A stretch of 64,000 nt of DNA from a virus (taxonomy: Duplodnaviria; Caudoviricetes), in the IMG/VR virus record IMGVR_UViG_3300010429_002123, one strand, 5' to 3'. A program made the position numbers and the translations under genes. Below, piece by piece: positions 41,977 through 61,698 of the stretch (its first letter is position 1; each line of letters starts with the position of its first letter). The notes below the pieces were generated by a model. That model saw only the letters and a program-made list of their open reading frames with translations, made no database searches and was not told where the DNA came from.

Positions 41977-41990
41977 AGGAGGAACAATGA

Positions 41991-42284: not shown

Positions 42285-42298
42285 ACAAGGAGGGAATT

Positions 42299-43882: not shown

Positions 43883-43890
43883 GCCCATAC

Positions 43891-43928: not shown

Positions 43929-44128
43929 CTTTAAGGAAGGTGATTGTATTTGCTACCTTATGTGCTGTATCCAGGGGTTGTTCTCGACTACTCCGAGGCT
44001 ATAATAGGACTGTTTTTAGTAGAATACGACACGGGAAAAAAGATAGAAAAAGACTGGTTACCCTGCAGAGACTTTATCCCGAAAAAACAGGAGCGGGTAA
44101 CAGTCAGGGATGGAAAGGAAAAATATAT

Positions 44129-44545: not shown

Positions 44546-44569
44546 CCCTTAAAAAGTATGTGTTATAAT
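44542..44569 (+). promoter_or_regulatory. sigma70-type promoter
   Basis: TTGACC-16-TATAAT with TG extension. Confidence 0.6.
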
Positions 44570-44626
44570 TATAAAATAGTATGCGACAAAAAGAATTTTA
44601 ATCTAATTTTAAAGGAGAAATTGTTT

Positions 44627-44893
44627 ATGCTTGGACCAGCTAAAGAAAGAGAATTTATTGTCAAGGAGGCTACCTTACTGAAAATCCTCAACCTTGCACA
44701 GAGTCTTAATGGTATCTGTACAGTGTTGATGCAGGAGATAAACGGCACAGTTTTTGAGCCTCTGCAGGAGAGGTTAAACTCAGCCACTCAAAATCTTCAG
44801 GCAGCCGTTACTGCCACCGCAAAAGAACTGCAGGAGGCCAAAGACGTAAGCCAGGTAGTAGCTCAAATCTCAGAAAAAAGAGTTAAAAAATAA
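44627..44893 (+). CDS. Hypothetical coiled-coil protein
   Basis: ATG after an aaggag RBS. Confidence 0.55.
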   Translation: MLGPAKEREFIVKEATLLKILNLAQSLNGICTVLMQEINGTVFEPLQERLNSATQNLQAAVTATAKELQEAKDVSQVVAQISEKRVKK

Positions 44894-44913
44894 GGATAAA
44901 AGGAGATAAAACA

Positions 44914-45384
44914 ATGAATTTTTTAGAGATAGCAAAGACCGTAGAGAACATAAGAAAAGGTATTTCCGCCGTGCATAAAAAAGCACAAAATATAGCCGTT
45001 ACTCTAGACCAGATAGACGATGTCATTTTTTCTGTCCTTGACGTTGTTTCCCCCGCTCTCCCAAAAACATGGCAAATAGCTATACAGGCCATAAAACAGT
45101 TTGAACAGATGGGAATCAAGTATTTAATTCCCGACATAGTCAAAGCCGAAGAAACTCCCGGAGTAACTGGGGAAGAAAAATTGGCAATTGCCGTACAGGG
45201 AATCACACAGGTTCCTATAGAAACAGTTAAAGAAGTTCTTGTCACTGTAGCAAAACCAGAGGTTCCCGCGTCTCTTCCCGCAAAAACCGAGGAAGAAAAG
45301 AGCACGGTGGACAAAATAGTAGAAACCTCAGAGAAAGTAACGTCGGTTGTCAAATTCATAAATGGTTTTATAAAGGGTTTTTAA
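44914..45384 (+). CDS. Putative holin-associated/lysis protein
   Basis: Directly upstream of the endolysin; AE...TGEEKL..A motif reminiscent of LL-H-type holins, but no clear TM helix. Confidence 0.35.
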   Translation: MNFLEIAKTVENIRKGISAVHKKAQNIAVTLDQIDDVIFSVLDVVSPALPKTWQIAIQAIKQFEQMGIKYLIPDIVKAEETPGVTGEEKLAIAVQGITQVPIETVKEVLVTVAKPEVPASLPAKTEEEKSTVDKIVETSEKVTSVVKFINGFIKGF

Positions 45385-45411
45385 CACTGAGTTAGCTAAG
45401 TTGAGGAGAAA

Positions 45412-45547: not shown

Positions 45548-46465
45548 ATGGCGATAAAAGGAATAGTTTTCCACTGGTCTGCAGGTAAATATGACCAGGT
45601 TTTTGAAGACTACCATTACTGTATCACGTATAATCCGACAACAAAAAAAGCTAAGATAGTTCAGATGTGCGAGAGTGACGACGAGATAAAAGCCCATACG
45701 TGGCACAGAAACAAGGGAAGAATAGGAATAAGCCTGAGTTGTGCTTACAACGCCACTACGGGTAATCTCGGTCAATACCCGCCCACAGACGCTCAAATAG
45801 AAATGGCCTGTGCTCTGGCCGGGAGACTCATCAAAAAACACGGAATAAAACCTGAAGACGACGAAGTAAACACCCATGCTGACTGGGCTGATTATGATAA
45901 TTACGGTCCTACCAGAAATGAAAACGGGTGTGAAAGATGGGATTTGTGGGTTCCGAACTGGAAAAACTATAAGAAAAATCTCGGGGACGTAATGAAAGAC
46001 AAAAGCTGGTGGTATGCCCAGCACGGAGAAGCCAAAGCGGAGGAAGAGGTAGAAAAACCCGCTAAGACTGACCCGAAGTTTAAAGACCTCGTAGCAAAAT
46101 ACGCAAAAGAATTTGATTTAAGGGAAGACTTTATTCATTCTATAATTTTACAGGAGTCTTCCTATAACCCAAAGGCTGTCAGTTCTTCTAACGCAAAAGG
46201 TCTCATGCAACTTCTTCCCGCCACATTTGCAGACTGTTTGAAAGCTTTAGGGTTACCCCCAACGTCAGACCCTTTCTCACCGGAGATAAACATACGCTGT
46301 GGGTGTTATTATTTTTCCTGGCTGTGGAAGAACTTGAAAAACACAAAAAGCACTCTCTGGCTTTTGTCTAAAGCTTATAATGATGGTCCCGGAACTGTGA
46401 GGGGTTTTGACCCCACAGACTTAAAGTCTGAGTATGCAGACAAGGTTTTATCAAGAATAAAGTAG
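45548..46465 (+). CDS. Endolysin: N-terminal amidase-like domain plus C-terminal SLT lytic transglycosylase
   Basis: IVFHWSAG..DYHYCI..AHTWHRN..IGIS..HAD; IILQESSYNPKAVS...AKGLMQL...AYNDGPG. Confidence 0.88.
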   Translation: MAIKGIVFHWSAGKYDQVFEDYHYCITYNPTTKKAKIVQMCESDDEIKAHTWHRNKGRIGISLSCAYNATTGNLGQYPPTDAQIEMACALAGRLIKKHGIKPEDDEVNTHADWADYDNYGPTRNENGCERWDLWVPNWKNYKKNLGDVMKDKSWWYAQHGEAKAEEEVEKPAKTDPKFKDLVAKYAKEFDLREDFIHSIILQESSYNPKAVSSSNAKGLMQLLPATFADCLKALGLPPTSDPFSPEINIRCGCYYFSWLWKNLKNTKSTLWLLSKAYNDGPGTVRGFDPTDLKSEYADKVLSRIK

Positions 46466-47278
46466 GTGCACTGTATGATAACAAGAGGACTTTCCTTACC
46501 CGGAAGTAAACAAAAATCTTCAGGAAAAGGTCTTTATAACTGGGGGTCTATCCCGGAAGAAAAAGACCCTGAAGAGAAAAATGAGGAGACCACAACGGCT
46601 TCAGTAGGCACAGGGGTTCCTATGAACATTTTTAGTTCTACAAAAGAGCCGAAACCTAAAAAAAGAAAAGACAATTTTCCTGTTGAATACGGAAATGAAG
46701 AAAGAGAGTTGGTAGTCTATACAGGGCTGACTGACCTCTTTCCAAACGAAAAAAAGCCGAGAAAGTCACGGGGGAGCGAATTTACAGAAACTATCAGACA
46801 GCTTGAAGAAGAGTGTCTTGTTTTAGAAGACATGTGTGGGATACTCGAGGGTGGTCCCGGTAGTGGCCAGTATGAAAGACATTCTAACGGGATTCCGAAG
46901 AAAAAGACAGATTTAAGGCAAAACATCTTAAAGTCTGTGGAAGATGCAAACAGGTATTATAAACACGGAATACCGTCCGCCATAGGGGACTTCAAAGAGG
47001 CCAGTGCCAGCCTGAAAGCCTATCTGAAACACGTTGCGGGAGAGAACTCTTCTGAAATAAAATTTCCCCACGCCGAAAATTACAAAAAAGAACGTAGCAG
47101 ACTTCATAAAATTGCGACGTTTTCGAAGGGTTCGTTAGACCATTATAAAAAAATAGTGGACGAACTTACTCCGAAACTTCAGGCGGAGGAGGAGAATGAA
47201 AAAAGGCAGAAAAACAAAAATCCTTTCCTGGCAAAAATAATAGCTATGGATAAAGCAAAAAGAGGGGGGATAAAGTAA
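46466..47278 (+). CDS. E-GGPGSG family protein 1 (putative capsid-internal protein)
   Basis: RQLEEECLVLEDMCGILE-GGPGSG followed by a basic domain. Confidence 0.7.
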   Translation: MHCMITRGLSLPGSKQKSSGKGLYNWGSIPEEKDPEEKNEETTTASVGTGVPMNIFSSTKEPKPKKRKDNFPVEYGNEERELVVYTGLTDLFPNEKKPRKSRGSEFTETIRQLEEECLVLEDMCGILEGGPGSGQYERHSNGIPKKKTDLRQNILKSVEDANRYYKHGIPSAIGDFKEASASLKAYLKHVAGENSSEIKFPHAENYKKERSRLHKIATFSKGSLDHYKKIVDELTPKLQAEEENEKRQKNKNPFLAKIIAMDKAKRGGIK

Positions 47279-47283
47279 CAAGT

Positions 47284-47706
47284 ATGAAAGAGCTAGAACA
47301 GTTACAAGAAGAGTGTGAAATTCTAGAGTTACAATGTGGGTATCTCTTAGACGTATTAGCAGAAGGGGGTCCGGGAAGTGGTAGAAAACCTTCTTCAAGT
47401 ACTCATACGTCTCTGGAAGACTACTTGACAAAACATGCCACGGAAAACTTAACAAAAGGGTTGACTCTCGCTAAAAATCCCCGTAAGGAGGCCGAGGCCA
47501 AAAACACCCTTAGTTCAGCTTTAGGGCACGCTACAGCTTTATATAAATTAAAACTCGAACCGGACAGTGAGAGGAAAATCTTACGTTTCGAGACCTTCTG
47601 GGGGGACGCGGATAGTCATGGGGAAAAAATAAAAGCAAAAAACCCGTCTTTGGAGAAGTTACGGGGGCGGGCAATTAAAGCCCTGGAAGTCTTTCGAGAC
47701 CTTTAG
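47284..47706 (+). CDS. E-GGPGSG family protein 2
   Basis: QLQEECEILE...LAE-GGPGSGRKP. Confidence 0.75.
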   Translation: MKELEQLQEECEILELQCGYLLDVLAEGGPGSGRKPSSSTHTSLEDYLTKHATENLTKGLTLAKNPRKEAEAKNTLSSALGHATALYKLKLEPDSERKILRFETFWGDADSHGEKIKAKNPSLEKLRGRAIKALEVFRDL

Positions 47707-47729
47707 ACAAATAAGAAAGGAGGCAAGAA

Positions 47730-48242
47730 ATGAAAAACCTCAGGGAAGTGAACACCATTTTAGAACAGGATTGTGAAATTCTCGAAAAAGAGATAGTAAA
47801 GGTGATGACCCTCGTGTGTGAAGGAGGTCCAGGCTCTGGGAGAAGACCTTCCGGCCTAGCTCGAAGAACTATTGTTGGAAGAAAAGCAACCACACCAGAC
47901 AGAACCCCCGATGAAACCCTGAACTTATTAAAAGATGGTCATACAGCGAATATAAAAGGTTTTACCAGAGAGCCGAGGTACTCAGAAAAAGACGGTAAGA
48001 AAAGATTTTTTATACCTCAGTACCCTGATACTCTGATGAAAGTAGGAACTGACGCAGGATTTATAACAAAAGACCCCTCGGACACTAAGAAAGGGACAAG
48101 TCGAGGAGGAAGGTATAAGGGCTGGTCTTACTGGGCTCAGCACAAAGATACTTACACAGACATGGACAAAGATGCTGTGGATAAAAAAGTGTTTCTGCTC
48201 AAAAAAGCAATTGACACTGTAACATCGAAAGGAGCAAAATAA
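47730..48242 (+). CDS. E-GGPGSG family protein 3
   Basis: ILEQDCEILE...VCE-GGPGSGRRP. Confidence 0.75.
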   Translation: MKNLREVNTILEQDCEILEKEIVKVMTLVCEGGPGSGRRPSGLARRTIVGRKATTPDRTPDETLNLLKDGHTANIKGFTREPRYSEKDGKKRFFIPQYPDTLMKVGTDAGFITKDPSDTKKGTSRGGRYKGWSYWAQHKDTYTDMDKDAVDKKVFLLKKAIDTVTSKGAK

Positions 48243-49222
48243 TGTTAGCAATGAGGCAGTTAGAAGAAGAGTGCGGGGTTCTCGAAGCCCAGGTAGAAAT
48301 CCTTACCAAACAGTTAGAAGAGGGAGGACCAGGTTCTGGAAGGAAATCTTCTGGAGAAAACGCTTTCACAGGAATACAAAAAAAGTATGGCCTTGACGCC
48401 GATTCTATAAAAAAGGCTCAGGCTTGGAAAAAAGAAAAGAATTCTTCCGAGTCAGACGGCTTGAAACTGATAGCGAAAAGTGCTGCAAAATCAATTCTCG
48501 GACAGGCGAAAGAAAACCAGAAAGAAAAAATCAAACAGCTAAGAGCAGAATTCACCAGAAAAGCTAAAGAGATGCGTAATAAAGCGAAAGAAGAAAGTAT
48601 AGAGGCTCAAATCGAAGAGTTAAAAGAATATATAAGTTATCTTAACTCCGAACTCGCTGAGGGGGGTCCGGGCTCAGGCCGGAGACCTGGGGGAGGCTCA
48701 TCGGGCAAAAGTTCAGGAGGTTCAAAACACGGTTATGGTTGGGACACGGGTTACACCCCCTATGAAAGAAATCCGGTGGGGATAGAAAAACCTAAGTATG
48801 GTTACCATAACCAGGAAAGAAGCCTGCCTAACATGGTTGCCAGACTGTCGAGTTCTCATGGAGAAAAAGTCAATGACATAGATTCCCTTGTGAACCTTGA
48901 CATGAAAAGTCTGAAAAGAGACATTTCTCAGGGCGGGTTCGCTGCGGAAGACAAGGGGAGAGGCCACGGAGAGCACGAAGCAAGGAAAAAGTATTCAAAT
49001 GACCTGAAAAACCTCGTTAGAACCTATGAACAGGACGGGAACAAAGCTGACTTTGTGTCCAGCCTGGAAAGGCTCTCGAAAGAGTATACAAGCACAAAAT
49101 CCCCGCAGTCAAAAGGAACAAGTGCTATGGCCGACTATAAAAACGCTAAAAACAGCACATACGACCAGAGCCTTGCCCAGCACGGGAAAGAAATAGGGTT
49201 ACTTTTAAAGAATTTTAAATAA
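48242..49222 (+). CDS. E-GGPGSG family protein 4 (two modules)
   Basis: LEE-GGPGSGRK and an internal LAE-GGPGSGRRP. Confidence 0.75.
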   Translation: MLAMRQLEEECGVLEAQVEILTKQLEEGGPGSGRKSSGENAFTGIQKKYGLDADSIKKAQAWKKEKNSSESDGLKLIAKSAAKSILGQAKENQKEKIKQLRAEFTRKAKEMRNKAKEESIEAQIEELKEYISYLNSELAEGGPGSGRRPGGGSSGKSSGGSKHGYGWDTGYTPYERNPVGIEKPKYGYHNQERSLPNMVARLSSSHGEKVNDIDSLVNLDMKSLKRDISQGGFAAEDKGRGHGEHEARKKYSNDLKNLVRTYEQDGNKADFVSSLERLSKEYTSTKSPQSKGTSAMADYKNAKNSTYDQSLAQHGKEIGLLLKNFK

Positions 49223-49251
49223 ACTCAAATAATGAGAACAAAGGAGGACGT

Positions 49252-49821
49252 ATGAACAACATACAGAACATTCAAGAAGAAATAGTAGAGATAAATAAAG
49301 AACTTGCCCAACTGGCCGAAGAAATTGGTGTTGCCGTTGAGCAGAGGAGACAGGAATCTATAGAGAGCCTTGAAGAAGAAGTTGTGGTCTTAGAAGACCT
49401 TATAAAAACCCTTGAAGAAGGTGGTCCCGGTTCCGGTAGAAGACCTGGGGGTGGGATAAGAAGGAGAGTAGACTCTGCAACAGCAAAAAATCAGGACTGG
49501 AAAGATAGAATAAAAGACCATGCGATAGACTATGCAAAAAGAGCGTTGGACATGCATTCTACTTCGAACAGCTCAAAAGAAAATAACAGAATTAAACTGG
49601 CAAATGCCTTAGCCAACTTTAGTGCTTTTGACGACGAGATAAAACCCAAGAGCACTCTCAAAAACAAGCATTATGACGCCTATAACGTCCATGCCTCTCA
49701 TCTGGGAGACGCTTTTAAACGGGGAAGTGACTCTAATGACTCTCTGGCAAAAAGCCTAAAAGGCAGACTTGACAAAGAAACCCCAAAAAAAGTTGATTAT
49801 CACGACTTTAATAAATACTAA
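49252..49821 (+). CDS. E-GGPGSG family protein 5
   Basis: SLEEEVVVLE...LEE-GGPGSGRRP. Confidence 0.75.
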   Translation: MNNIQNIQEEIVEINKELAQLAEEIGVAVEQRRQESIESLEEEVVVLEDLIKTLEEGGPGSGRRPGGGIRRRVDSATAKNQDWKDRIKDHAIDYAKRALDMHSTSNSSKENNRIKLANALANFSAFDDEIKPKSTLKNKHYDAYNVHASHLGDAFKRGSDSNDSLAKSLKGRLDKETPKKVDYHDFNKY

Positions 49822-49837
49822 GAAGGGAGAATGAAAA

Positions 49838-50770
49838 ATGTTTGGTTTAGACGACAAACTTTCAGAACTCATTTTAGAACAGGTAGTCTCTGATGTAATC
49901 TTAAAACCCGCAAAGAACTTAAAGAAAAAGGAAGTTCAGCCAGATTCAGAGAAACCGACGGACAAAAAACCCTTAGAAAAGACAAAACTCATAGATAAAA
50001 AATGCGTTGAGGCAAGCATTGTTTCTACTATCGAAGAAGTGCTGAGGGAAGAGGGGATAAACCCCACAAAAACTCTTACCTCGTTCATCCTCACCAGACT
50101 TAAAGAGGAAACTGCTCCCGCTAAATTTATGCGAAAAAGAGCCAAGTCAGCTCTCGAACAGGAGGTAACAAAAACTCTCCCTAAAGATGATACGGTTCAG
50201 AAAATAAGTATAAAACCCGTTCCTTCCGGGAAAGTGCGTGCTCCAGGAGGAGTAAACCAGTATGTGCCCAGAGATACAGAAATGCCTTCTGTTACTGTAG
50301 CTATAATCACGGGAGAGAAACTTGGTAAGAAAAAGATGATTGATAAAAAAGTTGAAGAAAGCCTGAAGCCTTCCCATTTCTCCGGGCAAGCCGGAGTAAG
50401 AAACCCCGGGGCTCTGGCTGCGTATCTCGGAAGAAAAAAGATGGAACGAGAACACGGCACAGAAGAGGGGGCAAAAAAGTTTAAAGAAAAGGTAATGTTT
50501 GGCCAGAAAAGAAGTAAACACGAACAGGACTTCTCTGATAAGCTAGAAGCCGGTGAGCACATAACAACCCCTCCCGGTTTTATTCCCCCGGACAAACGAA
50601 CTCTCTGGATGGACACATGGAACACTGTTTACGACAGACAACTCTCCAAAGGAAAATCAGCCCAGCAGGCAGAAATCGTGGCTTACTCTGTGGCCACTAA
50701 AATGGTTCAGGACAGTCTCCCCGGAAAAGCCTTTAAGGAGGACAGAGAGTGTCTTACCAGAGTAGCTTAA
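49838..50770 (+). CDS. Basic protein with a C-terminal ChaB-like domain
   Basis: P......W...WN..Y.........A...A.SV pattern; VRNPGALAAYLGRKK. Confidence 0.55.
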   Translation: MFGLDDKLSELILEQVVSDVILKPAKNLKKKEVQPDSEKPTDKKPLEKTKLIDKKCVEASIVSTIEEVLREEGINPTKTLTSFILTRLKEETAPAKFMRKRAKSALEQEVTKTLPKDDTVQKISIKPVPSGKVRAPGGVNQYVPRDTEMPSVTVAIITGEKLGKKKMIDKKVEESLKPSHFSGQAGVRNPGALAAYLGRKKMEREHGTEEGAKKFKEKVMFGQKRSKHEQDFSDKLEAGEHITTPPGFIPPDKRTLWMDTWNTVYDRQLSKGKSAQQAEIVAYSVATKMVQDSLPGKAFKEDRECLTRVA

Positions 50771-52224
50771 AACTTCTTCTTTCAAAGAAAAAGTATAATA
50801 ACTTAAAAGAAAGTGGTTCTCCCGGTATGCAGTGGGGCTTTACAAAAGGCCAGCCGAACGGCGGGAGAACCGCTAAAAAGCCGGAACCTGAAGAGTATAA
50901 AAGTAACGTCATAGACAGCGTGCCTTTAGAGTATAAGGCCGTTATGGACGACCTAGTGAAAGCGGGGCATAAATCTTATTTTGTAGGGGGAGCGGTTCGG
51001 GATACCATTTTAGGAAAACCTCCAAAAGACTGGGACATCACAACAAGTGCTCCCGTTGAAGAAAGTGTTAAAGTCCTTGAGAACCTCGGAACCGTCTTAG
51101 GAATTGGCCAGCAGTACGGAATAGCTATAGGGACAATAAACGGAAAACAAATAGAGGTGGCCTCGTTTAGAAAAGACCTGGGTTACTCAGACAAAAGAAG
51201 ACCGGACGAAGTGATAACCCGGGGGGTCTCCGAAGAAGAAGACGTCCAAAGAAGAGACTTCACCATGAATGGTCTCCTTATGGACTTAAGGGGGAATATA
51301 AAAGACTATGTCGGAGGTATAGACGACCTGAGTAAGAAAATTATTCGCTTCATAGGAGACCCTGATGCCAGAGTAGCTGAGGATAGTATAAGAATGCTCC
51401 GAGCAGTAAGGTTTGCAACACGTTTTGACTTTAATATAGACGAAGACTCCCTGGAAGCCATAAGAAGAAACAGGCAGGACATCTATAATACCTCCTACGA
51501 GCGTATCAGAGACGAACTGGACAAATCTTTCGGTAAAAACCCTCAAAAGGCTGTGGAACTCTTACAGCAGACCGGCTTAGACAAAACTCTCTTCGGAGAA
51601 CTAAACCCTAAAGATTTCCCGAAAACTGTAGAGTCAACTGCCATAGTCTGGGGGAGTTTACTTTCAGATAAAGGGCTGGAGACTTACAAACTTCCTGTGG
51701 GCGTAAAAAAGACTGTCAGCACTATTAAAAAGCTGGGGGAGGACTACGAGAACGTCTCCGATGACCCTATAGAGCGGAAAAAATTAAAAATAGCCATAGA
51801 GAAAGTGTTACCCGTAGAAGAATTTGATAAGTTTTTAAAAATGGCTGGTAAAGAGCAGAAATTTAATTTAAAATCTATAAAAGTCCCTGAGGATACTACT
51901 CCTCTGGTTCAAGGAAAAGACCTTATGAATCTGGGAAAGAAACCCGGAAAGAACTTTTCTGACCTATTAAACAAAGGGTATAGTATGCAACTTCAGGGAA
52001 AAAGTAAAGAAGAAATTTTGAACATACTAAGGAATGAAGGTGTGGGTTACTCTACACTTCTAAAAATAGAAAACCTGTTAGATAAGCGGGAGTGGCTCAA
52101 TGAGACCTTAAAGACTGGCACACAAAGAGGTTATTCCCGGCTTTATGCAGACACCTTGATACAGGAATGTGAAATGCTTGACCTTTACGCAGGGGTAGTA
52201 ATGACTCAGTTACTGAGAAGGTAA
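50749..52224 (+). CDS. cca: Class II tRNA nucleotidyltransferase (CCA-adding enzyme) with N- and C-terminal extensions
   Basis: GGAVRD..LG..PKDWDI, EVASFR.D..YSDKRRP, RRDFTMN, EDSIRMLRAVRF, ERIRDEL. Confidence 0.9.
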   Translation: MSYQSSLKLLLSKKKYNNLKESGSPGMQWGFTKGQPNGGRTAKKPEPEEYKSNVIDSVPLEYKAVMDDLVKAGHKSYFVGGAVRDTILGKPPKDWDITTSAPVEESVKVLENLGTVLGIGQQYGIAIGTINGKQIEVASFRKDLGYSDKRRPDEVITRGVSEEEDVQRRDFTMNGLLMDLRGNIKDYVGGIDDLSKKIIRFIGDPDARVAEDSIRMLRAVRFATRFDFNIDEDSLEAIRRNRQDIYNTSYERIRDELDKSFGKNPQKAVELLQQTGLDKTLFGELNPKDFPKTVESTAIVWGSLLSDKGLETYKLPVGVKKTVSTIKKLGEDYENVSDDPIERKKLKIAIEKVLPVEEFDKFLKMAGKEQKFNLKSIKVPEDTTPLVQGKDLMNLGKKPGKNFSDLLNKGYSMQLQGKSKEEILNILRNEGVGYSTLLKIENLLDKREWLNETLKTGTQRGYSRLYADTLIQECEMLDLYAGVVMTQLLRR

Positions 52225-52277
52225 AGATTCGAGACGCTATGTAAGAAAATAGTAAGTACAAAAGGAGGAAAAGACGA

Positions 52278-52850
52278 ATGAAAAGGCTGAACACAGAAAT
52301 AAGAAAACTGGAAAGAGAATGTGACTTCTTAGAGGGGCAGGTTGCCGAAGTTATGCAGTATTTATGGGAAGGTGGACCAGGTTCCGGGAGAAAACCGGGA
52401 GGACATGGCTATGGTCATGATTCAGCAGGAACACCTAAGTATGGTTTCCACAACCCGGAGCGTAATCTCCCAAACGCTCTTGCTATAGCTTCTAACCGGT
52501 TGGGCTACCTTGTCAACGGGGCTGACAAAGACTATGAAAAAGAAAAAACAGCCATAAAAACTGGTAAGTCCTCGGACTATTACAAAGGATTCGTGCATGG
52601 GGAGCACAAGGGAATGAGACAATTCACAAATGACCTGAAGGGTCTTGTTCAAGATTACGAGAAGAACGGAGATGAGAAGGGTTTAAGAGACAAAGCTCAC
52701 GCCCTTGCTAAAACCTATGATGACACTCCTGAGTTCTCTTCACCCGGAAAATCTGGCTTAGACGATTATAAAAATGAAAAAGGAAAAGGGTATAAAAGCC
52801 AGTTAAGAGCTCACAGTGATGAATTGAAAGGTATTTTAAAACGCTTTTAA
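52278..52850 (+). CDS. E-GGPGSG family protein 6 (paralogue of module 2 of 48242)
   Basis: KLERECDFLE...LWE-GGPGSGRKP; HGYG.D, PKYG.HN.ER.LPN, NDLK.LV..YE..G shared with 48242. Confidence 0.78.
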   Translation: MKRLNTEIRKLERECDFLEGQVAEVMQYLWEGGPGSGRKPGGHGYGHDSAGTPKYGFHNPERNLPNALAIASNRLGYLVNGADKDYEKEKTAIKTGKSSDYYKGFVHGEHKGMRQFTNDLKGLVQDYEKNGDEKGLRDKAHALAKTYDDTPEFSSPGKSGLDDYKNEKGKGYKSQLRAHSDELKGILKRF

Positions 52851-52862
52851 GTCCGTAAAACA

Positions 52863-52892
52863 AAAAGGGACTGGTTTTAACCAGTCCCTTTT
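52863..52892. terminator. Bidirectional rho-independent terminator
   Basis: aaaagggactggtt-tt-aaccagtccctttt between convergent genes. Confidence 0.85.
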
Positions 52893-52901
52893 CATTTGAT
52901 T

Positions 52902-53171
52902 TTACCACCGGAAAGACTCAGCCGGGTCATATTCGAACACTTCATCAAACTGAGCCTTGTGACTCATTCCGTCTTCAAAGTCACAGTCCATATTTTCACA
53001 TATGTCGAGGATTTCTTCTATTGAAGAGTCAGTCATATCGTTACAGAGGATTTCTCTGATAATGTCTTCCTCGAAGTCCCAACCGTTTTCTTGGACGTGT
53101 TTTTCTGCCTGCTCGATTTCCTCGATGGTGAATGCATTCTTTATCATTTCATTTATAAATTCCTGTGTCAT
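52902..53171 (-). CDS. Small, highly acidic protein (candidate DNA mimic/anti-defence protein)
   Basis: About 27 D/E versus 5 K/R in 89 aa; own RBS (aaggagg), promoter and terminator. Confidence 0.75.
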   Translation of the reverse strand: MTQEFINEMIKNAFTIEEIEQAEKHVQENGWDFEEDIIREILCNDMTDSSIEEILDICENMDCDFEDGMSHKAQFDEVFEYDPAESFRW

Positions 53172-53229
53172 GTTGTTTTCCTCCTTTTATTGAGGTCTTT
53201 GGCCTGCCTGACCTCTTTCTCACATTCTT

Positions 53230-53258
53230 ATAATAGCATAACTTAATATACTTGTCAA
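53230..53258 (-). promoter_or_regulatory. Strong sigma70-type early promoter
   Basis: Reverse strand TTGACA-17-TATTAT with TG extension. Confidence 0.8.
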
Positions 53259-53325
53259 TACTTTTTGTAAAAATAAGTTAACTATTTTTTAGGGAAAAGA
53301 AGTTAGCTATTTTTTACAAAAAGGC

Positions 53326-53354
53326 TTGACAAGTAAAACATCTTGTGCTACACT
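53326..53354 (+). promoter_or_regulatory. sigma70-type early promoter (divergent from the previous one)
   Basis: TTGACA-17-TACACT with TG extension. Confidence 0.75.
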
Positions 53355-53475
53355 TTACAGAGTGAAAGAACCGTGAAAAAGACTCCTGTCAGTAAAAGGA
53401 GAAAGTTTACCGACACAAAAAGGAGTTTTGTTAGCACAAGAAGGATTTTTGTTAACACAAAAAGGAGGAAGAGAA

Positions 53476-55293
53476 ATGGTAGCAACTATAAAAGAAAACA
53501 TGCCTGCAACCCTCAGAAAGATTAGAAAAGGACTGGTATTTGACCCGGACAGTGTCTGGAAAGAACTCTTTCAAAACGCCTTCAGGGCTCTTGCAAAAAC
53601 TATAGAGATAGACCTCGAGGCTGATTCTATAACAATGATAGATGACGGTGTAGGTTTGGATAACCCTGAAGTTCTTTTTGAAAAGTCCACTTCAGGGTGG
53701 ACAACTGACGTGTGTAATCCCTACGGAGAAGGTCTCTTTGCTGTGTTTTCAGTAGCAGAGGAGATAGTTATACAGTCTAAAGACTGGTTTGTTCACATAG
53801 ACGTAGAGGAGATTCTCCTGGACGAAAGTCTGAGATACAGTATAGAAAAATCAGAAGAGTTCATAAACGGGTTTAAAATAACTCTTCGAGGAGAAGAAAT
53901 ACGAAAAAACTGGACTTCTATTTATACAGAGGTAGAGACACTGGGTGCCGTGTGTAAGCAGGAGGTATTCTTAAATAAACTTCCCATAGCAAAAAAAGAC
54001 CTGTTTGCTCTTCCTAAAGCAGACTTTGTTTACAAAGTAGAAAACTCTTCTTTTCGAGGAAACCTTGCTCCAGAAAGAGGCTGGGAAGATATACACGTTT
54101 ATTTTGAAAACCGATTTGTCTGTGAATGCTGGGTTGGAGGTCTTTCTGGAGTGATAGAACTTGTCAACGGAAATGTCGTAGACTTAAAAGCCCCAGACAG
54201 AAAGGCCATTATTCAAAATGATAAATACTGGACATTCATGGACCTTTTAAAAGAAGAAAAAGAAAAAATGTACAGGGCTTTTGTCGTAGCCAGACCGGAC
54301 TTGTTACATTTATACTCAGAAAAGATAGCTACTACCCTCAAGGTAAAAGATTATGTAAGGCATTTGACTTTTGAGGAGGAAGTTTTTAATACCAAAAAAC
54401 TCTTAACGGGTATAGAAGACCTTTTTCAACAAATGACTGACCTTACCTCTGAACAGGTAGAAAGAAGAGTAGAAAAAGCTAAAGTCGAGAAGATGGAGAC
54501 AATAGAAGAGCCCCAAAAACTTCTGGATAACTGCTATTCTGAAAACAGAGAAGAAGAAGACTACTCTCACGTAGTGCCTCTCGTGGTGTCCGAAGAAGAG
54601 AGAAAGGAAAAAGAAATTGAAAAGAAAAAGATGGAAAAAAGAAAAAGTGCGACAGTATTAAAGAGAATAAAAAAGAACCCGCAAAAAAAGATATTTGTAA
54701 AGGCTTCCGAAGCCACAGAGTATAAGGCTATGATAGCTGAATTAGAGTATTACGGGTATACAGTGTTAGTAGCCCAAAATGAACTTTATGCCTGTGCCTT
54801 TGAGGAGTTTGGTATAACTAGCATAAAATCTGTTGGGAAAGAAATAGAAAAAGCCAATAAAGTAACCGACGTAGCTGTAAAAAACCATAAGGAAAGAAGA
54901 ATTATCTATCTCTTGTCTTTTATTGAAGATTATTATAAAATAGGAGATGTATTCAGGATAGGTAAACTTGAACTTGAAATAAGAACGACTATCCTGGGAA
55001 AAACCAATATAGAAAAACAAAAAGTGCTGGGTCTGTGCGATAAAGGTAAAATTTATCTGGACAGAACTGGATTAGAGTATATAGAAAGAACCGATGGTTC
55101 GACTTATGGTTACAGAAACGTTGAGTATGTAGGACTTTCTTTAGATGACTGGAAATACATACCTTTTTTACTCCAGACAGTATCCCATGAACTGGCACAC
55201 TTACTGAAGAACACTAAGGATAATACAGTTGAGCATTTTAAAGCGGAAAACCAGATAAGAGAAGAGTTATTAAGAATGTTTAAAAGGAGGTAG
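53476..55293 (+). CDS. GHKL (Hsp90/MutL/MORC-like) ATPase fused to a C-terminal HExxH domain
   Basis: ELFQNA.RA, DDGVG, YGEG; C-terminal TVSHELAH......H; ATG after aaggagg. Confidence 0.8.
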   Translation: MVATIKENMPATLRKIRKGLVFDPDSVWKELFQNAFRALAKTIEIDLEADSITMIDDGVGLDNPEVLFEKSTSGWTTDVCNPYGEGLFAVFSVAEEIVIQSKDWFVHIDVEEILLDESLRYSIEKSEEFINGFKITLRGEEIRKNWTSIYTEVETLGAVCKQEVFLNKLPIAKKDLFALPKADFVYKVENSSFRGNLAPERGWEDIHVYFENRFVCECWVGGLSGVIELVNGNVVDLKAPDRKAIIQNDKYWTFMDLLKEEKEKMYRAFVVARPDLLHLYSEKIATTLKVKDYVRHLTFEEEVFNTKKLLTGIEDLFQQMTDLTSEQVERRVEKAKVEKMETIEEPQKLLDNCYSENREEEDYSHVVPLVVSEEERKEKEIEKKKMEKRKSATVLKRIKKNPQKKIFVKASEATEYKAMIAELEYYGYTVLVAQNELYACAFEEFGITSIKSVGKEIEKANKVTDVAVKNHKERRIIYLLSFIEDYYKIGDVFRIGKLELEIRTTILGKTNIEKQKVLGLCDKGKIYLDRTGLEYIERTDGSTYGYRNVEYVGLSLDDWKYIPFLLQTVSHELAHLLKNTKDNTVEHFKAENQIREELLRMFKRR

Positions 55294-55298
55294 CTCGA

Positions 55299-55739
55299 AT
55301 GCTGGGAAAGTTTAAGAAAAAGATATATGACGCCAGAATACGTTTCGGAGACGAAAGTTACTTCATCATAGATACGTTAAAGGAACCTATAAATATAGAG
55401 GGTATTTTTCCTCAGACGGGTGAGAAACTGGGAACTTATCTAATAAGGCTAAAAGAGGTTTCGAACGCTTTGGAACTCAGACTGGCTCGCAAAATATCGA
55501 GTGCGGAACCTTTTATGATAGCTTCTGAAGAGTTCTCTTCTCTTTTAAATTACAGAGTTTTCACCAGACTGATGATAAGAGCTAAAGACATGACCTCCTT
55601 AAGGTGTGCAAATGACTTGACTTTTCATGGTATTTCGAAAAGTCATTTCAAATTAAGGGACACTTACTTTAAAATAGGTTTAGAAGTAGAAATAGTAGGA
55701 AGAGCCCCGGATGAAAAAGATGTATGTGTTTACTTTTAA
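55299..55739 (+). CDS. Hypothetical protein
   Basis: RBS aggagg; in operon. Confidence 0.6.
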   Translation: MLGKFKKKIYDARIRFGDESYFIIDTLKEPINIEGIFPQTGEKLGTYLIRLKEVSNALELRLARKISSAEPFMIASEEFSSLLNYRVFTRLMIRAKDMTSLRCANDLTFHGISKSHFKLRDTYFKIGLEVEIVGRAPDEKDVCVYF

Positions 55740-55770
55740 GTAGAAAAATTAGAGAGGAGAAAGAGCCGAT

Positions 55771-56076
55771 ATGAACAGTCCGTATAACGAAGAAGGTTAC
55801 CAGAAGCAGTTCTTAAAAGCCTGTGAAAGATTACCGAAACAGATTCCTTTTCTTCATGAAGAGAGAGAAGGAGGTTATTTCTACTTAGCGTTCTTACTTC
55901 CCTTTTTCCCGCAGCCTTTGGAGGAGACCCGCATGCAGTTAATAAGAGAGCTGGCACAAATGATGCAGGAACTGGAAGAAAAGGACGAAATAGACCTTGA
56001 GGAGTTGGAGGTGCTGAAGGGAATAAAAACTCCTATTGCTTCGGAAGGGTATTCTGTGGCTTTTTCTATGAGTTAG
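55771..56076 (+). CDS. Hypothetical protein
   Basis: RBS gagg; in operon. Confidence 0.55.
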   Translation: MNSPYNEEGYQKQFLKACERLPKQIPFLHEEREGGYFYLAFLLPFFPQPLEETRMQLIRELAQMMQELEEKDEIDLEELEVLKGIKTPIASEGYSVAFSMS

Positions 56077-56123
56077 AGTCTTTTTAGAACTAAAAATTTT
56101 TGTTAATGAAAAGGAGAAAACTT

Positions 56124-56426
56124 ATGAAGTGCTTAAGTCTTTACTCGGAATACATAGAGGAGATACTTTCCGGTGAAAAAACGGAGGAATATCGCAGTTG
56201 GAAAATATCCTGCCCACAGGACATATTGTTGGTAGGTAGCAAGTCCCCCCGTGGGAAATACTCCGGGTTAGGTGCCTGTATTGTGCACGTATCAAGGATA
56301 GAAGGACAAAAACCTAATTACGATTGGATTTTGGAAAACGTACGACCTGTGGAGCCTTTTCCAGTAAAGGGAAAGCTCGGCCTGTATGAAATACCCGATA
56401 ATCTTATTCGTCTATTAAAAGACTAG
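56124..56426 (+). CDS. ASCH domain protein
   Basis: LSL...Y...IL.GEKT.EYRSW......L....W.L..VRP..P.PVKGKLGL. Confidence 0.85.
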   Translation: MKCLSLYSEYIEEILSGEKTEEYRSWKISCPQDILLVGSKSPRGKYSGLGACIVHVSRIEGQKPNYDWILENVRPVEPFPVKGKLGLYEIPDNLIRLLKD

Positions 56427-56455
56427 TTTACACAGAAAGCGAAATATGATAAAAT
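56427..56455 (+). promoter_or_regulatory. Promoter for the Gly-Gly-tail cluster, followed by a 5'-UTR hairpin at 56474..56494
   Basis: TTTACA-17-TAAAAT with TG extension; agactacc-tataa-ggtggtct. Confidence 0.6.
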
Positions 56456-56525
56456 AAAGGAAACTGACCCGATAGACTACCTATAAGGTGGTCTTTCCTA
56501 TTTTAAAAAGAAAGGAATTGATAGA

Positions 56526-56960
56526 ATGGCTGAACTTAAGTATACTACGAAGAAAACCCCTGAGCAGTTAGAAAAAGAACAAAAAGTATTTGCGAAAAAG
56601 TATCCGTATGGGGAAATTTTAAAAGACTATCACAGACTCCAGAGGTCACTGAAGCCGAGCGAAAGAGATTACTTAAAAGACACAAGAGATGCCCTGAAAC
56701 CTCTCGCCTCTTCAAATAACAGGGAGGAAGTAGCCTCCGCTCTCGCCGCAACCACAGGGGCTGCAGCCTGGCTGAAAAGACGCATGGACGAAGCCGATGG
56801 AAAAACCGTTACCCCCGCTTCATGGGACAGGGTGGCCGAAGAAACAGAAAAGCTGACAAAATCTCTGCTGGCCGGAAACCGAGACATAGAAAGTATGAGA
56901 GACGAACTCAAGTGGAGACTGAAAACAGCATGGCATAAAGGTGGACTCGTAGGGAGCTAA
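56526..56960 (+). CDS. Small basic protein ending GGLVGS
   Basis: RBS aaagga; Gly-rich C-terminus. Confidence 0.7.
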   Translation: MAELKYTTKKTPEQLEKEQKVFAKKYPYGEILKDYHRLQRSLKPSERDYLKDTRDALKPLASSNNREEVASALAATTGAAAWLKRRMDEADGKTVTPASWDRVAEETEKLTKSLLAGNRDIESMRDELKWRLKTAWHKGGLVGS

Positions 56961-57008
56961 ATCACATCATATTCAAATATTAAAATTAAAAGAAAGGCGG
57001 GAAAAAAC

Positions 57009-57338
57009 ATGGCAGATACAGCGACAGCTCCAGTTAATGCTACAATCAGAAACCCAAAAGGTCTGAATCCTTCGGACGTAAGGGACATGAACAAGTACAC
57101 CAAGTATTATAACAAAAAGCAGAAACTCATCGGTAAACTCGCAAGAGAAAATGCTCTTATGCAGGTAGAAAAAAGCCCCTCAAAGAAGCCGAAGATGGCT
57201 GCCTCCGAAAGAGCCAGACTTTTCAAAAAAGATATGTGGGGACAAAGTCTAAGAACCCTTGAAAATTACGCAAAATTACCACCCGCAGAACGGGCAAGAA
57301 CACCTTTTAAAGACGTTGCGGCAGTAGGAGGGGGTTAA
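57009..57338 (+). CDS. Small basic protein ending AVGGG
   Basis: C-terminal diglycine. Confidence 0.7.
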   Translation: MADTATAPVNATIRNPKGLNPSDVRDMNKYTKYYNKKQKLIGKLARENALMQVEKSPSKKPKMAASERARLFKKDMWGQSLRTLENYAKLPPAERARTPFKDVAAVGGG

Positions 57339-57342
57339 GTAA

Positions 57343-57699
57343 ATGGCGAAATCAGTGGGAGATATACTCAGAAAGTTAGTTTCAGACAGGGCTAAAACTC
57401 TGGACAAAACTTACGATAAAAAATACCCGAACGCAAATAACCAGTCAAAACAGGACAGAACACAGAGAAATATAGATATACTAAAATCTATCTCAAACGC
57501 AAGAAGAGCAGGAAAAGAACTAACCCCCAAAGACCTCGCTTACATGGTCTGGGACGCTTCGGCCAAAAAGGGAACCGGTTGGCACGGAGCTGACGGGCGA
57601 CCTATGACAGCAGATAAGATTGAAAACCTTATAGCAAGTGACATGGCAAAGGCTGGTTTACGCTCGCCCGATTCCGCCAGTGGTGGAACCGGGGGTTAA
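57343..57699 (+). CDS. Small basic protein ending SGGTGG
   Basis: C-terminal diglycine. Confidence 0.7.
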   Translation: MAKSVGDILRKLVSDRAKTLDKTYDKKYPNANNQSKQDRTQRNIDILKSISNARRAGKELTPKDLAYMVWDASAKKGTGWHGADGRPMTADKIENLIASDMAKAGLRSPDSASGGTGG

Positions 57700-57720
57700 G
57701 CAACAAAGGAGGGACATGCA

Positions 57721-58161
57721 GTGGCCACGTATATAGGTTCAAAAATGCCCAAAGGAAGGGCTACTCTCTCTAACAAAGACATCTTAAAAGCCGTGCAGAA
57801 TATGATAAAAGAGAAAGATAGACAAGATGTGAGAAGGTGGGGAGAACCTGACGAGCAGGACAAAAAATGGAACAAAGAAAGAGATAAAAACATAAAGGAC
57901 GCCTTAGGTAAACTCTCCGGTAAGGTCTCTGCTGAAGACGCCTTGAAACGGCTTGGGGGACTCAAAAAACAAGAAGTTTCTCCCTCACTGTTTAAAGATG
58001 ATTACCTTTATAAGGGCTCTCCTTATTTCGATAAAGATGAGTTAGGATACTTAAAAGACGAGATAAGAAAAGTAGAGACAAGGAAGACTCTTGACTATCA
58101 GAAAAAAAGGGAAAGAGCAATGACCCCGGATATGTTTGGAAAAAGCGGGTCAGGAGGCTAA
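57721..58161 (+). CDS. Small basic protein ending SGSGG (paralogue of 58256)
   Basis: KTLDYQK.RERAMTPDMF shared with 58256. Confidence 0.75.
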   Translation: MATYIGSKMPKGRATLSNKDILKAVQNMIKEKDRQDVRRWGEPDEQDKKWNKERDKNIKDALGKLSGKVSAEDALKRLGGLKKQEVSPSLFKDDYLYKGSPYFDKDELGYLKDEIRKVETRKTLDYQKKRERAMTPDMFGKSGSGG

Positions 58162-58255
58162 TAGTAGACCATAGGAATCTTTTTTTAGATATGGATTCAA
58201 TCTTAAACAACAGAACTTCTGCCCCGACAGGGACAGGAGGTATAGGAGGTTAAAA

Positions 58256-58669
58256 ATGCCCACATATTATGGAGGAAAAACTCCCAACAAACGAGTAGCT
58301 TTAAACAAAAATGAAATAATGAAAGCTGTTAAGGCTGTTTTAAAAAAAGAATATGACGACGAGGATAGATATTCTTCCCCGGACAAAGAAACTTTAAATG
58401 ACCGTAAGGAAAGAGAAAAAGGTCTAAGAAAGAAAATGGATTCTCTTTCTAAAAATCCCTCCGTTGAAGAGATTACCTCTGCTCTCTCCAACGTAAAAAT
58501 GAAAGATATAGTCGGAAGAGGTGAATCTGCCTTTTTTACAAAGGGGGAGTTAAAAGACGTTGAGAAAAAAATAGGACAAGCAGAAGTTAAAAAAACTCTT
58601 GATTACCAGAAAGCAAGGGAAAGGGCGATGACTCCTGACATGTTTGCTGTGGGTGGGTCAGGAGGATAA
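58256..58669 (+). CDS. Small basic protein ending GGSGG (paralogue of 57721)
   Basis: Shares KTLDYQK.RERAMTPDMF with 57721; strong RBS. Confidence 0.75.
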   Translation: MPTYYGGKTPNKRVALNKNEIMKAVKAVLKKEYDDEDRYSSPDKETLNDRKEREKGLRKKMDSLSKNPSVEEITSALSNVKMKDIVGRGESAFFTKGELKDVEKKIGQAEVKKTLDYQKARERAMTPDMFAVGGSGG

Positions 58670-58671
58670 GT

Positions 58672-59448
58672 ATGATAAATTTATGTAGACTATCTGAACA
58701 GGTAGAGATACTTGAAGAGATGGTAAGTATTTTAGAAGGGGGTCCTCCGAAAGACGGAGGACCCGGCAGTGGGAACTATGAAAGGCGCAAGCAGTATGAC
58801 CCGGAAACTCAGGAAATGGTTGATTTTTTAGGCAAGGTTGTGGGGGGAGCACTTGACTCCTCTCTTAACCCCCGTGACTTCGCTCACACGAAACATTATG
58901 TACCTCCTGCCCTGAAAGCTCACCGACTGGAGGCTCTTGATTTCGCAATGGCGTTCTGGCAAATGCAAAAAGAAGACAAGCCAAGTATAGATAACTTTTA
59001 TGCCAATGCTAAAAAGAACACAGAAAAATTCACAAAAGACAACATGTCTCAAGATGACCTGCTCGACCGTCTTGCAAACGCTAAAAAATTCATAGTCGGA
59101 GAGAAGTTTACTGCCCGACAGGAAGACACACCCGAACAAAAAGAGCTTCGAAAGATTGACCGCCTGCTGGCGAGCAAAGACCCTATTCCTTACTCGATAG
59201 CTCTCGGACGGCTTAGCAAAGAAGGGGGAACACGCCTAAGAGACACTGGAGACCCCAAGAAGGAGCAACATCTCGACTTAAAAGCTATTGACGCTATCAC
59301 TGCAGAAAAGAATTATAATCTGAGAAACTTCCCTCACAGAAAAGACCCTTCTCCCTACTACAATGGCCTTACCAAACAGTTAGTTACCAGGGTAAAAGAA
59401 AGAGCAGAGAAACACGGAATTTCAGTTAAAAAAGCAGATTATGAATAG
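58672..59448 (+). CDS. E-GGPGSG family protein 7
   Basis: RLSEQVEILEEMVSILE-GGPPKDGGPGSG. Confidence 0.72.
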   Translation: MINLCRLSEQVEILEEMVSILEGGPPKDGGPGSGNYERRKQYDPETQEMVDFLGKVVGGALDSSLNPRDFAHTKHYVPPALKAHRLEALDFAMAFWQMQKEDKPSIDNFYANAKKNTEKFTKDNMSQDDLLDRLANAKKFIVGEKFTARQEDTPEQKELRKIDRLLASKDPIPYSIALGRLSKEGGTRLRDTGDPKKEQHLDLKAIDAITAEKNYNLRNFPHRKDPSPYYNGLTKQLVTRVKERAEKHGISVKKADYE

Positions 59449-60807: not shown

Positions 60808-61698
60808 ATGAAAACATACAAAAAGACCGAAAAAACAGAAAACAAGGAGACCGTTGCTGACAAAATCACAGCTAATATAATAGCTGAACTGGAAAAAGGA
60901 AACTTAGCTTGGAGCAGAAACTGGACTGGAACCGCCCCGACAAATGCCATGTCAAAAAAAGAATACCGTGGTATAAACAGACTGAACCTGATGCTGGTAG
61001 GTATGGACAAAGGTTTCCAGAGTCCATACTGGATGACTTACAACCAGGCAAAAGACCTGGGCGGTAATGTCATAGCAGGCTCTAAAGGCTCACAAGTAAT
61101 ATACTGGAAAGTCCTCAAATATGACAAAATAGACGAAGAGACTCAGGAAGTCTCCTCAAAGTCAATACCTTATATGAGATATTCCACAGTATTCAACCTT
61201 GACCAGATTGAAAACATCGACAAAACAAAGTTCGAGACCAAGAAAACACAAGTAAACCCTGTGGAAGAGGCCGAAAAAATCATAAGAAATTATCAGAATG
61301 GTCCAGCTATCGAGTTCGGGTGTTTCAATCCGTGCTACAGACCCGCAACAGACGAAGTCAAAATGCCCGCTATAAATGCGTTCAACAGTGAAGAAGGTTA
61401 CTACTCAACAATGTTTCACGAGCTCGGTCACTCGACAGGACATGCAACAAGACTGAATAGAGAAGAAGTCGTAGGAGTAAACTTCTTCGGTAGCCACAAC
61501 TACGCGACAGAAGAGTTAGTAGCCGAGTTTACAAGTGCTTTCTGCTGTGCAAGCTGTGGTATGTCTAATGAAAAAGTCATTGAAAATCAGGCCGCATATG
61601 TACAAAACTGGTTAAAAGTCTTAAAAAATGACAGAAAAATGGTCATAAATGCGGCAGCCCGTGCAGAAAAATCTTACGCCAGAATACTCGGAAGGTAA
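60808..61698 (+). CDS. ardC: ArdC-family antirestriction / ssDNA-binding protein with a zincin domain
   Basis: Y.GIN...L......W.TY.QA...GG.V..G.KG, VFN..Q, Y.P..D.V.MP, HELGHSTGH..RL.R, YA.EELVAE, Y..NW...L. Confidence 0.9.
   Translation: MKTYKKTEKTENKETVADKITANIIAELEKGNLAWSRNWTGTAPTNAMSKKEYRGINRLNLMLVGMDKGFQSPYWMTYNQAKDLGGNVIAGSKGSQVIYWKVLKYDKIDEETQEVSSKSIPYMRYSTVFNLDQIENIDKTKFETKKTQVNPVEEAEKIIRNYQNGPAIEFGCFNPCYRPATDEVKMPAINAFNSEEGYYSTMFHELGHSTGHATRLNREEVVGVNFFGSHNYATEELVAEFTSAFCCASCGMSNEKVIENQAAYVQNWLKVLKNDRKMVINAAARAEKSYARILGR

Follow-up and report, generated by a model that had tools for sequence, protein, structure and literature searches.

Phages carry proteins in the capsid that are injected together with the DNA, and to our knowledge the addressing rules for such capsid cargo are known for only a few model phages. 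In the giant phages SPN3US and phiKZ, a self-cleaving head protease (gp245/gp175) cuts after A/S/G-x-E, and the ejection proteins form paralogous families; gp245 of SPN3US cuts after A-x-E, and N-terminal propeptides of 20-254 residues are removed from head and ejection proteins (PMC10052503). The capsid-targeting sequence of T4 (Mullaney & Black 1996) is taken here as it is cited in that article. We analyzed a stretch of 64,000 nucleotides, called the window below, from a large uncultured virus of the Caudoviricetes (IMG/VR record IMGVR_UViG_3300010429_002123). Seven of its genes, which we call family 1, encode a helical leader that ends in a hydrophobic residue, a free residue and Glu and runs into the peptide GGPGSG, called the tag. 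We consider it fairly probable, judging from sequence comparison, that these proteins are propeptide-bearing capsid cargo, and that the head protease would cut them after the Glu and expose an N-terminal GGPGSGR.

A six-frame search of the window found exactly eight copies of GGPGSG, all on the + strand (at 46850, 47365, 47823, 48323, 48662, 49420, 52371 and 58756). They lie in seven open reading frames (ORFs), beginning at 46466, 47284, 47730, 48242 (two copies), 49252, 52278 and 58672. The triplets before the tag are ILE, LAE, VCE, LEE, LAE, LEE, LWE and ILE, that is, [ILV]-x-Glu in every copy, and in 58672 a GGPPKD spacer separates ILE from GGPGSG. All of this agrees with an earlier note on this DNA, made by reading the letters alone. 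The continuation R[KR]P, which that note gave as usual, follows five of the eight copies, and the other three continue with RKS, QYE and NYE. The note also held that the copies differ in their codons. The 18-nt core has a pairwise identity of 0.91 at codon positions 1 and 2 and 0.31 at position 3, the 117-nt modules share 28-56% DNA identity between copies, and a repeat finder returned weak, protein-driven matches between modules and nothing stronger. Thus the conservation is indeed at the protein level, and a DNA repeat is excluded. From residue frequencies, we estimated a chance expectation of about 0.002 copies of EGGPGSG per 184-kb genome.

The hexapeptide is identical to that in the P-loop of adenylate kinases (GGPGSGKGT), and a search of the literature for it gave nothing but kinases (adenylate or thymidine) and synthetic linkers. 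One could suppose that the tag is a degenerate P-loop and that the proteins bind nucleotides. However, R-[RKH]-P takes the place of Lys-[Ser/Thr], and a helix and a Glu, not a beta strand, precede the glycines. In addition, the segment is predicted to be disordered, and the searches brought up neither a fold nor a family of nucleoside triphosphatases. Flanking sequence and disorder prediction exclude membership in the GxxxxGK[ST] class, and we rejected the P-loop identity, leaving nucleotide binding of this kind next to no probability.

The leader was less uniform than the earlier note had described. Its positions L11, L18 and E19 are invariant, but the rest of the consensus is looser than claimed, and Cys is present in five of the eight copies. 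The same note regarded the downstream domains as mostly unrelated; this does not hold for all of them, because the protein of 52278 and the second half of that of 48242 share 42% identity. Since the two are homologous, 48242 consists of two complete leader-tag-cargo units, and we predict two products from this polyprotein-like gene. The hybrid gene 58672 connects family 1 with the GGPPKD variant of the tag, which characterizes the second family described below.

The head genes of this phage lie directly upstream of window position 1 (Table 1). They include the genes that the earlier note had proposed to look for elsewhere in the genome: a prohead protease, which is of the T4 gp21 type (S77) and is fused to a scaffold, and a major capsid protein (MCP). 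The Peptidase_S77 family (PF03420) matched at C1:155815-156291 with 48.6 bits (cut-off 27). The match lies in a 711-aa protein with the protease domain at the N-terminus and, behind it, a long region that is acidic, helical and resembles a scaffold, and the gene is situated between those for the portal and the MCP. The residues D83-H84 and S138 of the protease are invariant in an alignment with its relatives (A4), and the search of this genome for an HK97-type S78 protease was negative. As for the x-x-E processing sites that the earlier note proposed to test for, an L-x-E with a variable middle residue (P2) is retained immediately ahead of the conserved core in relatives of the MCP with 43-49% identity. 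This agrees with a maturation cleavage after Glu in this lineage. A prediction of the complex between the protease domain (A4) and a leader-tag peptide (A2, residues 1-60), made without controls, gave a score of 0.00, below the mark.

Two side observations concern the protease genes. A second S77-like ORF of 206 aa with a sub-threshold match of 19.4 bits is located far from the head module (L003:1390-2010, - strand; genome ~C1:29311-29931). It has ADSS in the place of the D-H-P motif with the catalytic His, and may be an inactive protease homologue. The protease-scaffold protein (L198:2608-4743, - strand) contains at residues ~515-535 a Cys-rich cluster (..EAECEVCGNLESECECGKECK..), and a Cys is conserved in five of the eight family-1 leaders (LEEEC..LE). 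It is conceivable that the two sets of Cys residues make a common metal or disulfide contact.

The search for leader and tag across phage sequences, which the earlier note had proposed, revealed that the tag is widespread and sits on head-linked proteins. Written as a degenerate DNA pattern, E-GGPGSGR[KR]P matched 16 IMG/VR contigs with G+C contents from 31% to 64%. Some of these contigs carry four to six clustered genes for small, basic proteins whose leader has 15 residues (MKKVNVEDFNTVLVE/GGPGSGRRPGG, the slash marking the predicted cut), and some encode PI3/PI4-kinase-like proteins with a GGPP..GGPGSG variant. When the preceding residue was left free, a scan of IMG/VR for GGPGSGR.PG found 68 contigs. 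The invariant part is GGPGSGR[RKH]P(G), and the residue before it (P1) is Glu, Lys, Ala, Phe, Asn or the start Met, depending on the lineage.

In order to compare the positions before the tag, we calculated their identities over 46 lineages with 115 within-lineage pairs. The identity at P1 was 0.99 within lineages and 0.18 between lineages, whereas the values were 0.17 and 0.07 at P2 and 0.34 and 0.12 at P3. That is, P1 is fixed, P3 is semi-conserved and hydrophobic, and P2 is free, which is the signature of a protease site. An exhaustive profile search with a hidden Markov model in 1.84 billion protein representatives gave 213 clusters at E <=0.001. The best 149 proteins of that search contain 334 tags, with Ala at P1 in 145, Lys in 103, Glu in 51 and Phe in 9. 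Among the proteins with several tags, 98 of 113 have one P1 residue throughout, and the mixed cases are mostly Ala/Gly/Ser/Cys.

We also observed a second flavour of the tag (L077, L063, L072 and L238), in which an aromatic residue plus His or Cys replace R-x-P. Its forms are GGPGSGNYGHSG, GGPGSGW[YF]ASAGH and GGPGSGC.G.NCGRP, and they resemble the GSGNW.RH and GSGNYERR variants of the present phage. In a scan of the genome contigs for degenerate tags, the in-frame ones among the matches listed looked like off-frame chance in a high-GC genome.

The P1 residue appears to track the family of the head protease. We typed the proteases of 32 records plus this genome, and the link rests on nine records. 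S77 proteases were found in Glu-P1 lineages only, in four of four (this phage, G003, G004 and G005). The S78 and S78_2 (XkdF-type) proteases go with Lys at P1 in three records, Arg in one and Leu in one, that is, with Lys/Arg in four of five, and one record with Lys has a ClpP-type protease.

The tag also occurs on proteins of the head itself. In fusion proteins of the S77, S78 and XkdF types it immediately follows the protease domain, in a Mu gp29-type portal it precedes a C-terminal extension, and in ParB/ChaB, InPase, MuF, ADP-ribosyltransferase (ART), zeta-toxin and NUDIX proteins it lies between the modules. A Pfam scan of 92 carriers gave InPase in eight, portal, Mu-F, ADP-ribosyltransferase, zeta toxin and NUDIX in two each, and GNAT and a lethal-factor-like peptidase in one each. 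The proteins in which GGPGSG directly follows Met are small and basic, and are encoded between the portal and a MuF-like minor head gene. In one such head module (L039) the order is terminase, portal, tag protein, MuF, scaffold and MCP, and no protease gene lies between portal and MCP. A related contig (L064) has the same order of terminase, portal and tag protein, as judged from ORF size and N-terminal sequence. Since the tag follows the start Met without any leader in some phages, the leader cannot define the system. The earlier note had taken leader and tag together as the shared module; of the two, the leader is variable and lineage-specific, and GGPGSGR is the universal part.

The AlphaFold2 (AF2) model of the 52278 protein, made from a single sequence with a mean predicted local distance difference test (pLDDT) value of 58, shows one helix at residues 2-31 that terminates exactly at the P1 Glu, a disordered stretch at 32-61 containing the tag, and a helical domain at 64-189. 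The model of a family-2 protein (mean pLDDT 72) shows two leader helices, a disordered stretch at 30-79 containing the tag, and a globular domain. In these models the junction is exposed and flexible and would therefore suit a protease substrate. The same disorder would also be expected if the tag were an uncut flexible hinge, or a Gly/Arg motif that binds nucleic acid (RGG-like or AT-hook-like) and links helical oligomerization domains with basic domains, in which case a location in the virion would be optional. Arg, Lys, Pro and Gly, often in a basic sequence, indeed come after the tag, and many carriers are small and basic. However, an uncut hinge leaves unexplained why P1 is 99% fixed within lineages while P2 is free, why P1 is linked to the protease family, and why the motif begins at Met in a head module without a protease. 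Binding of DNA after cleavage is compatible with the cargo reading, so that only the word uncut sets the two apart. We think that an uncut hinge is unlikely.

Outside the window, the genome encodes a second family of ten paralogues (Table 1), which represent a lineage-specific expansion and each of which has its own leader and tag. The family-2 leader differs from that of family 1 in that it is of a two-helix type (..NPAYLTLL..), and it ends in [LI]-x-E. The tag is GGPPKDGG[IV]GSGNW, a variant like that in 58672. Counted over the genome, 18 of 18 tags stand after [ILV]-x-E, and the number of tagged proteins in this phage is at least 17; their leaders are of two classes, and the tag is common to them. 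An eleventh carrier lies in the same region as family 2. The residues H204-E205-H208 (HExxH) and E323/E327 are invariant in the ten paralogues. When the AF2 model was searched with VIA-align, nearly all of the top 50 matches were zinc metallopeptidases at middling Z values (<=8.1). Foldseek gave E >=0.13, Pfam gave only a sub-threshold match to Peptidase_M91, and the ESM Atlas gave weak zincin hints for family 2 and no useful relatives for the 52278 protein. On the basis of these models and motifs, we regard the family-2 proteins as candidate zincin-like peptidases. A DNA methylase gene is interspersed among the family-2 genes.

These candidate peptidases raise the question of which enzyme would cut the junctions. 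According to a proposal of Iyer et al. (PMC5512222), polyvalent proteins are split into their units by MPTase domains, and this genome encodes an MPTase-PolyVal protein as well as ten HExxH paralogues. A zincin metallopeptidase, namely an MPTase, the family-2 proteins or the ArdC-MPTase protein at 60808, might then be responsible. Nevertheless, the MPTase-PolyVal domain was found in 0 of the 92 carriers scanned, and P1 follows the S77 versus the S78 family. Moreover, the zincin-like proteins of family 2 bear leader and tag themselves, and for this reason they look like substrates. We consider cutting by a zincin very unlikely.

Taken together, the comparison favors the cleavable-leader cargo proposal of the earlier note in its main part, by the S77 protease, the consistent [ILV]-x-E, the L-x-E of the MCP, the link of P1 with protease family and the tag on head-interior proteins. 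Docking of the helix on the scaffold and an ejection or DNA-binding signal in GGPGSGR, which that note also proposed, would be further, conjectural steps. From these sequences we infer cleavage, packaging and a possible role of the tag as follows. The seven window genes and the ten paralogues would encode capsid-interior cargo made as precursors, and the lineage-specific helical leader, ending in [ILV]-x-Glu, would be a propeptide and possibly a capsid-targeting element. It may bring the precursor to the core under assembly, in the manner of the T4 capsid-targeting sequence, or it may merely mask the end of the protein or the enzyme. During head maturation, the scaffold-fused gp21-type serine protease would cleave after the leader Glu, the leader would be discarded, and the mature N-terminus would be the flexible, invariant GGPGSGR[RK]P. 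This peptide may be a pan-phage tag of head-internal proteins, with P1 suited to the protease of each lineage. In at least one lineage whose head module has no protease gene, the sequence Gly-Gly-Pro-Gly-Ser-Gly is encoded directly after Met. There, methionine aminopeptidase would have to take off the start Met to expose the Gly end.

The tag is invariant across protease classes, is kept where no cut is needed and is absent at the MCP site, and it must therefore have a role beyond cutting. Candidates are a hold on the portal or the capsid interior, a DNA anchor, and a lead through the tail. In the widest form of this idea, an N-terminal GGPGSGR[RKH]P would serve tailed phages universally as the signal on proteins carried in the capsid, read by the portal, the shell interior or the DNA end regardless of protease type, so that any protein with this end, whether gained by cleavage or encoded right behind Met, would be loaded and delivered with the genome. 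We hold this wide form only tentatively and find it rather doubtful.

Several results weigh against the cargo reading. The MCP of this phage has an L-x-E site without the tag, meaning that the tag is dispensable for cutting and that its strict conservation is not explained by a cleavage model alone. The tag was found in 0 of 6 records with relatives of this MCP (five are fragments, 6-42% complete, and one is 75% complete); neither the close relatives, which are fragments, nor a 123-kb distant relative has it. In the typing, no protease was detected in most records. The Ala class, which is the largest, had no match to S77, S78, S78_2, S49, ClpP or the A4 profile, and two complete Ala-tag genomes of 124-129 kb with direct terminal repeats, G016 (L072) and G020 (L056), are without a head protease detectable with five Pfam families and our own profile. 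Paralogy inside genomes inflates the counts of concordant P1. Full-length searches of IMG/VR and INPHARED found no homologue of families 1 and 2, and in a set of 5.8 billion proteins their matches were confined to the near-identical genomes of this phage itself. For the strict pattern GGPPK[DN]GG[IV]GSGN there were 0 matches in IMG/VR, and the looser GG[IV]GSGNW had few real carriers there (L227/L234/L237 and L238). The searches for cultured carriers found none: in Serratia phage MTx and in BcepF1 the portal-InPase fusions are without the tag, a search with a Lys-P1 protein gave one prophage match only, outside its tags, and tblastn with short modules gave no usable match.

The surroundings of the genes bear on whether the proteins belong to the virion at all. 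The IMG/VR virus record to which the window belongs has 183,650 bp and is estimated to be 78% complete, and near-identical contigs of this phage extend to 233,966 bp. The family-1 cluster could encode non-virion early or anti-defence proteins, with the leader as a regulatory or localization element (a coiled-coil partner or a degradation signal) and the likeness to protease sites as a coincidence of paralogy. In keeping with this, none of the seven proteins matched a family in Pfam or PHROG, and non-structural genes (CCA enzyme, ASCH, PAPS reductase and ArdC) are neighbors. On the other hand, the cluster stands immediately behind the genes for tail and lysin and shares their strand, the tag of other phages occurs within head modules and on portals, proteases and MuF proteins, and the pattern extends over 46 lineages, beyond paralogues. 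We judge a non-virion function to be quite unlikely, and the cargo reading is the one we keep.

Positions of the features are collected in Table 1.

Table 1. Positions of the tag-bearing genes and other features. Positions are those of the window unless marked as genome (C1) or as outside the window; a slash marks the predicted cut.
Feature	Position	Strand	Remarks
Virion module before the cluster	1..45400	+	neck, tail-completion, major tail protein with Ig domain, 2675-aa tape-measure-like ORF, tail fibre genes
Amidase_2 + SLT peptidoglycan hydrolase	45548..46465	+	adjoins the cluster upstream, end of tail module
Family-1 gene, 270 aa	46466..47278	+	internal leader helix at ~residues 106-128; ILE/GGPGSGQYE at 46841-46876; predicted propeptide of 128 aa
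Family-1 gene, 140 aa	47284..47706	+	N-terminal leader; LAE/GGPGSGRKP at 47356-47391
Family-1 gene, 170 aa	47730..48242	+	N-terminal leader; VCE/GGPGSGRRP at 47814-47849
Family-1 gene, 326 aa	48242..49222	+	LEE/GGPGSG at 48314-48340; LAE/GGPGSG at 48653-48679
Family-1 gene, 189 aa	49252..49821	+	30-aa extension, then leader; LEE/GGPGSGRRPGGG at 49411-49455
CCA-adding / poly(A) polymerase-family enzyme	50749..52224	+	within the cluster; Pfam PolyA_pol 3.6e-29
Family-1 gene, 190 aa	52278..52850	+	LWE/GGPGSGRKPGG at 52362-52403
Hybrid member, 258 aa	58672..59448	+	ILE/GGPPKD-GGPGSGNYERR at 58726-58788
ArdC-N + MPTase-PolyVal zincin	60808..61698	+	
Portal, S77 protease-scaffold and MCP genes	genome C1:152826-158141	-	directly upstream of window position 1
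Family 2, ten paralogues, 380-516 aa	genome C1:166602-183396	+	zincin-like (predicted)
Eleventh carrier, 474 aa	168056-169480 (outside the window)		LAE/GGPPSADGPGSGNY

Further features were noted in and around the cluster. Its flanks (59474-61698 and 56100-56426) encode PAPS-reductase-family, ArdC-N + MPTase-PolyVal and ASCH-domain proteins, and the pair of ArdC-N and MPTase-PolyVal is typical of anti-restriction and 'polyvalent' proteins that are delivered together with DNA. The CCA-adding enzyme has a degenerate tag, LKE/SGSPG, at residues 19-26 (50803-50826; regular-expression search), and its C-terminal helix (..LIQECEMLDLY..) resembles the family-1 leader. It is a possible, weak candidate for a ninth family member, and may be packaged cargo or a leftover of module shuffling. 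Five successive small basic ORFs of 109-146 aa (56526-58669, + strand) have Gly-rich C-termini at the stop codon (..GGLVGS, ..AVGGG, ..SGGTGG, ..KSGSGG and ..VGGSGG). They matched no family in Pfam, those at 57721 and 58256 are paralogues, and the hybrid gene 58672 begins 3 nt past the last of them. At the contig start (genome C1:1-65), a 21-nt unit (TCCTTTTTGTGGTAACAAAAA) is present in three tandem copies, for which an origin, a pac-like element and an assembly edge are possible interpretations.

If the cargo reading is correct, phages that differ in their head protease would label capsid-loaded proteins with one short peptide, each lineage adapting only the residue that precedes it. The specificity of the head protease and the packaged effectors, which among the carriers include peptidase-like proteins, kinases, ADP-ribosyltransferases and zeta toxins, would then become readable from metagenomic phage genomes. 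The peptide would also give a handle on what holds or leads internal capsid proteins, and would be a candidate for a portable tag that brings foreign proteins into phage heads. The present phage would have an unusually large cargo set, with its ten-member zincin-like family included.

Compared with known systems, the window proteins are like the internal proteins IPI-III and Alt of T4 in that short N-terminal leaders with a hydrophobic-x-Glu end precede unrelated proteins. They also share with the T4 internal proteins a gp21-family protease, basic or enzymatic cargo, and clustered genes. No T4 internal-protein family was matched in Pfam or PHROG (the T4 capsid-targeting peptide itself was not aligned), and we therefore think of the present system as an analogue of the T4 system and not as a member of it. 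The present phage is not a T4-like myovirus but a jumbo phage of siphovirus-like kind. Unlike T4, one phage here has two leader classes, with internal or long leaders among them, and an invariant GGPGSGR comes after the predicted cut site. We know of no GGPGSGR-like post-cleavage motif in T4. Encapsulin cargo-loading peptides and the C-terminal targeting tail of the HK97 protease are further short Gly/Ser-rich peptides that load an HK97-fold shell. They are C-terminal and uncut, whereas the tag here is N-terminal and is predicted to be freed by a cut.

The likeness to SPN3US and phiKZ lies in the N-terminal propeptides before Glu sites and in the paralogous cargo families. These phages differ in that a weak prime-side preference for Ser only, and no conserved post-cleavage tag, has been reported (PMC10052503). 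The likeness to polyvalent proteins (Iyer et al. 2017, PMC5512222) and MuF polymorphic toxins (Jamet et al. 2017, PMC5576092) is that carriers elsewhere hold InPase, MuF, ParB, zeta-toxin, ART, NUDIX and portal fusions, and that the window has an ArdC-N + MPTase-PolyVal gene. The seven tag-bearing proteins of the window themselves have no domain that is recognizable with Pfam or PHROG. Unlike the polyvalent proteins, the units here are mostly separate genes with their own leaders, and only 48242 is a two-unit fusion. Autoprocessing by the MPTase is proposed in PMC5512222, the text of which does not contain the words 'glycine' or 'linker'.

The invariant tag after the predicted cut, with its lineage-matched P1, is described by no searchable paper. 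The Glu class, the link with the protease family, the Met-start class, the counts and the list of cargo come from the present analysis. In kind, the system belongs with what is already known, that is, with the cleavable targeting leaders of T4, the ejection-protein propeptides of the giant phages, and the polyvalent proteins.

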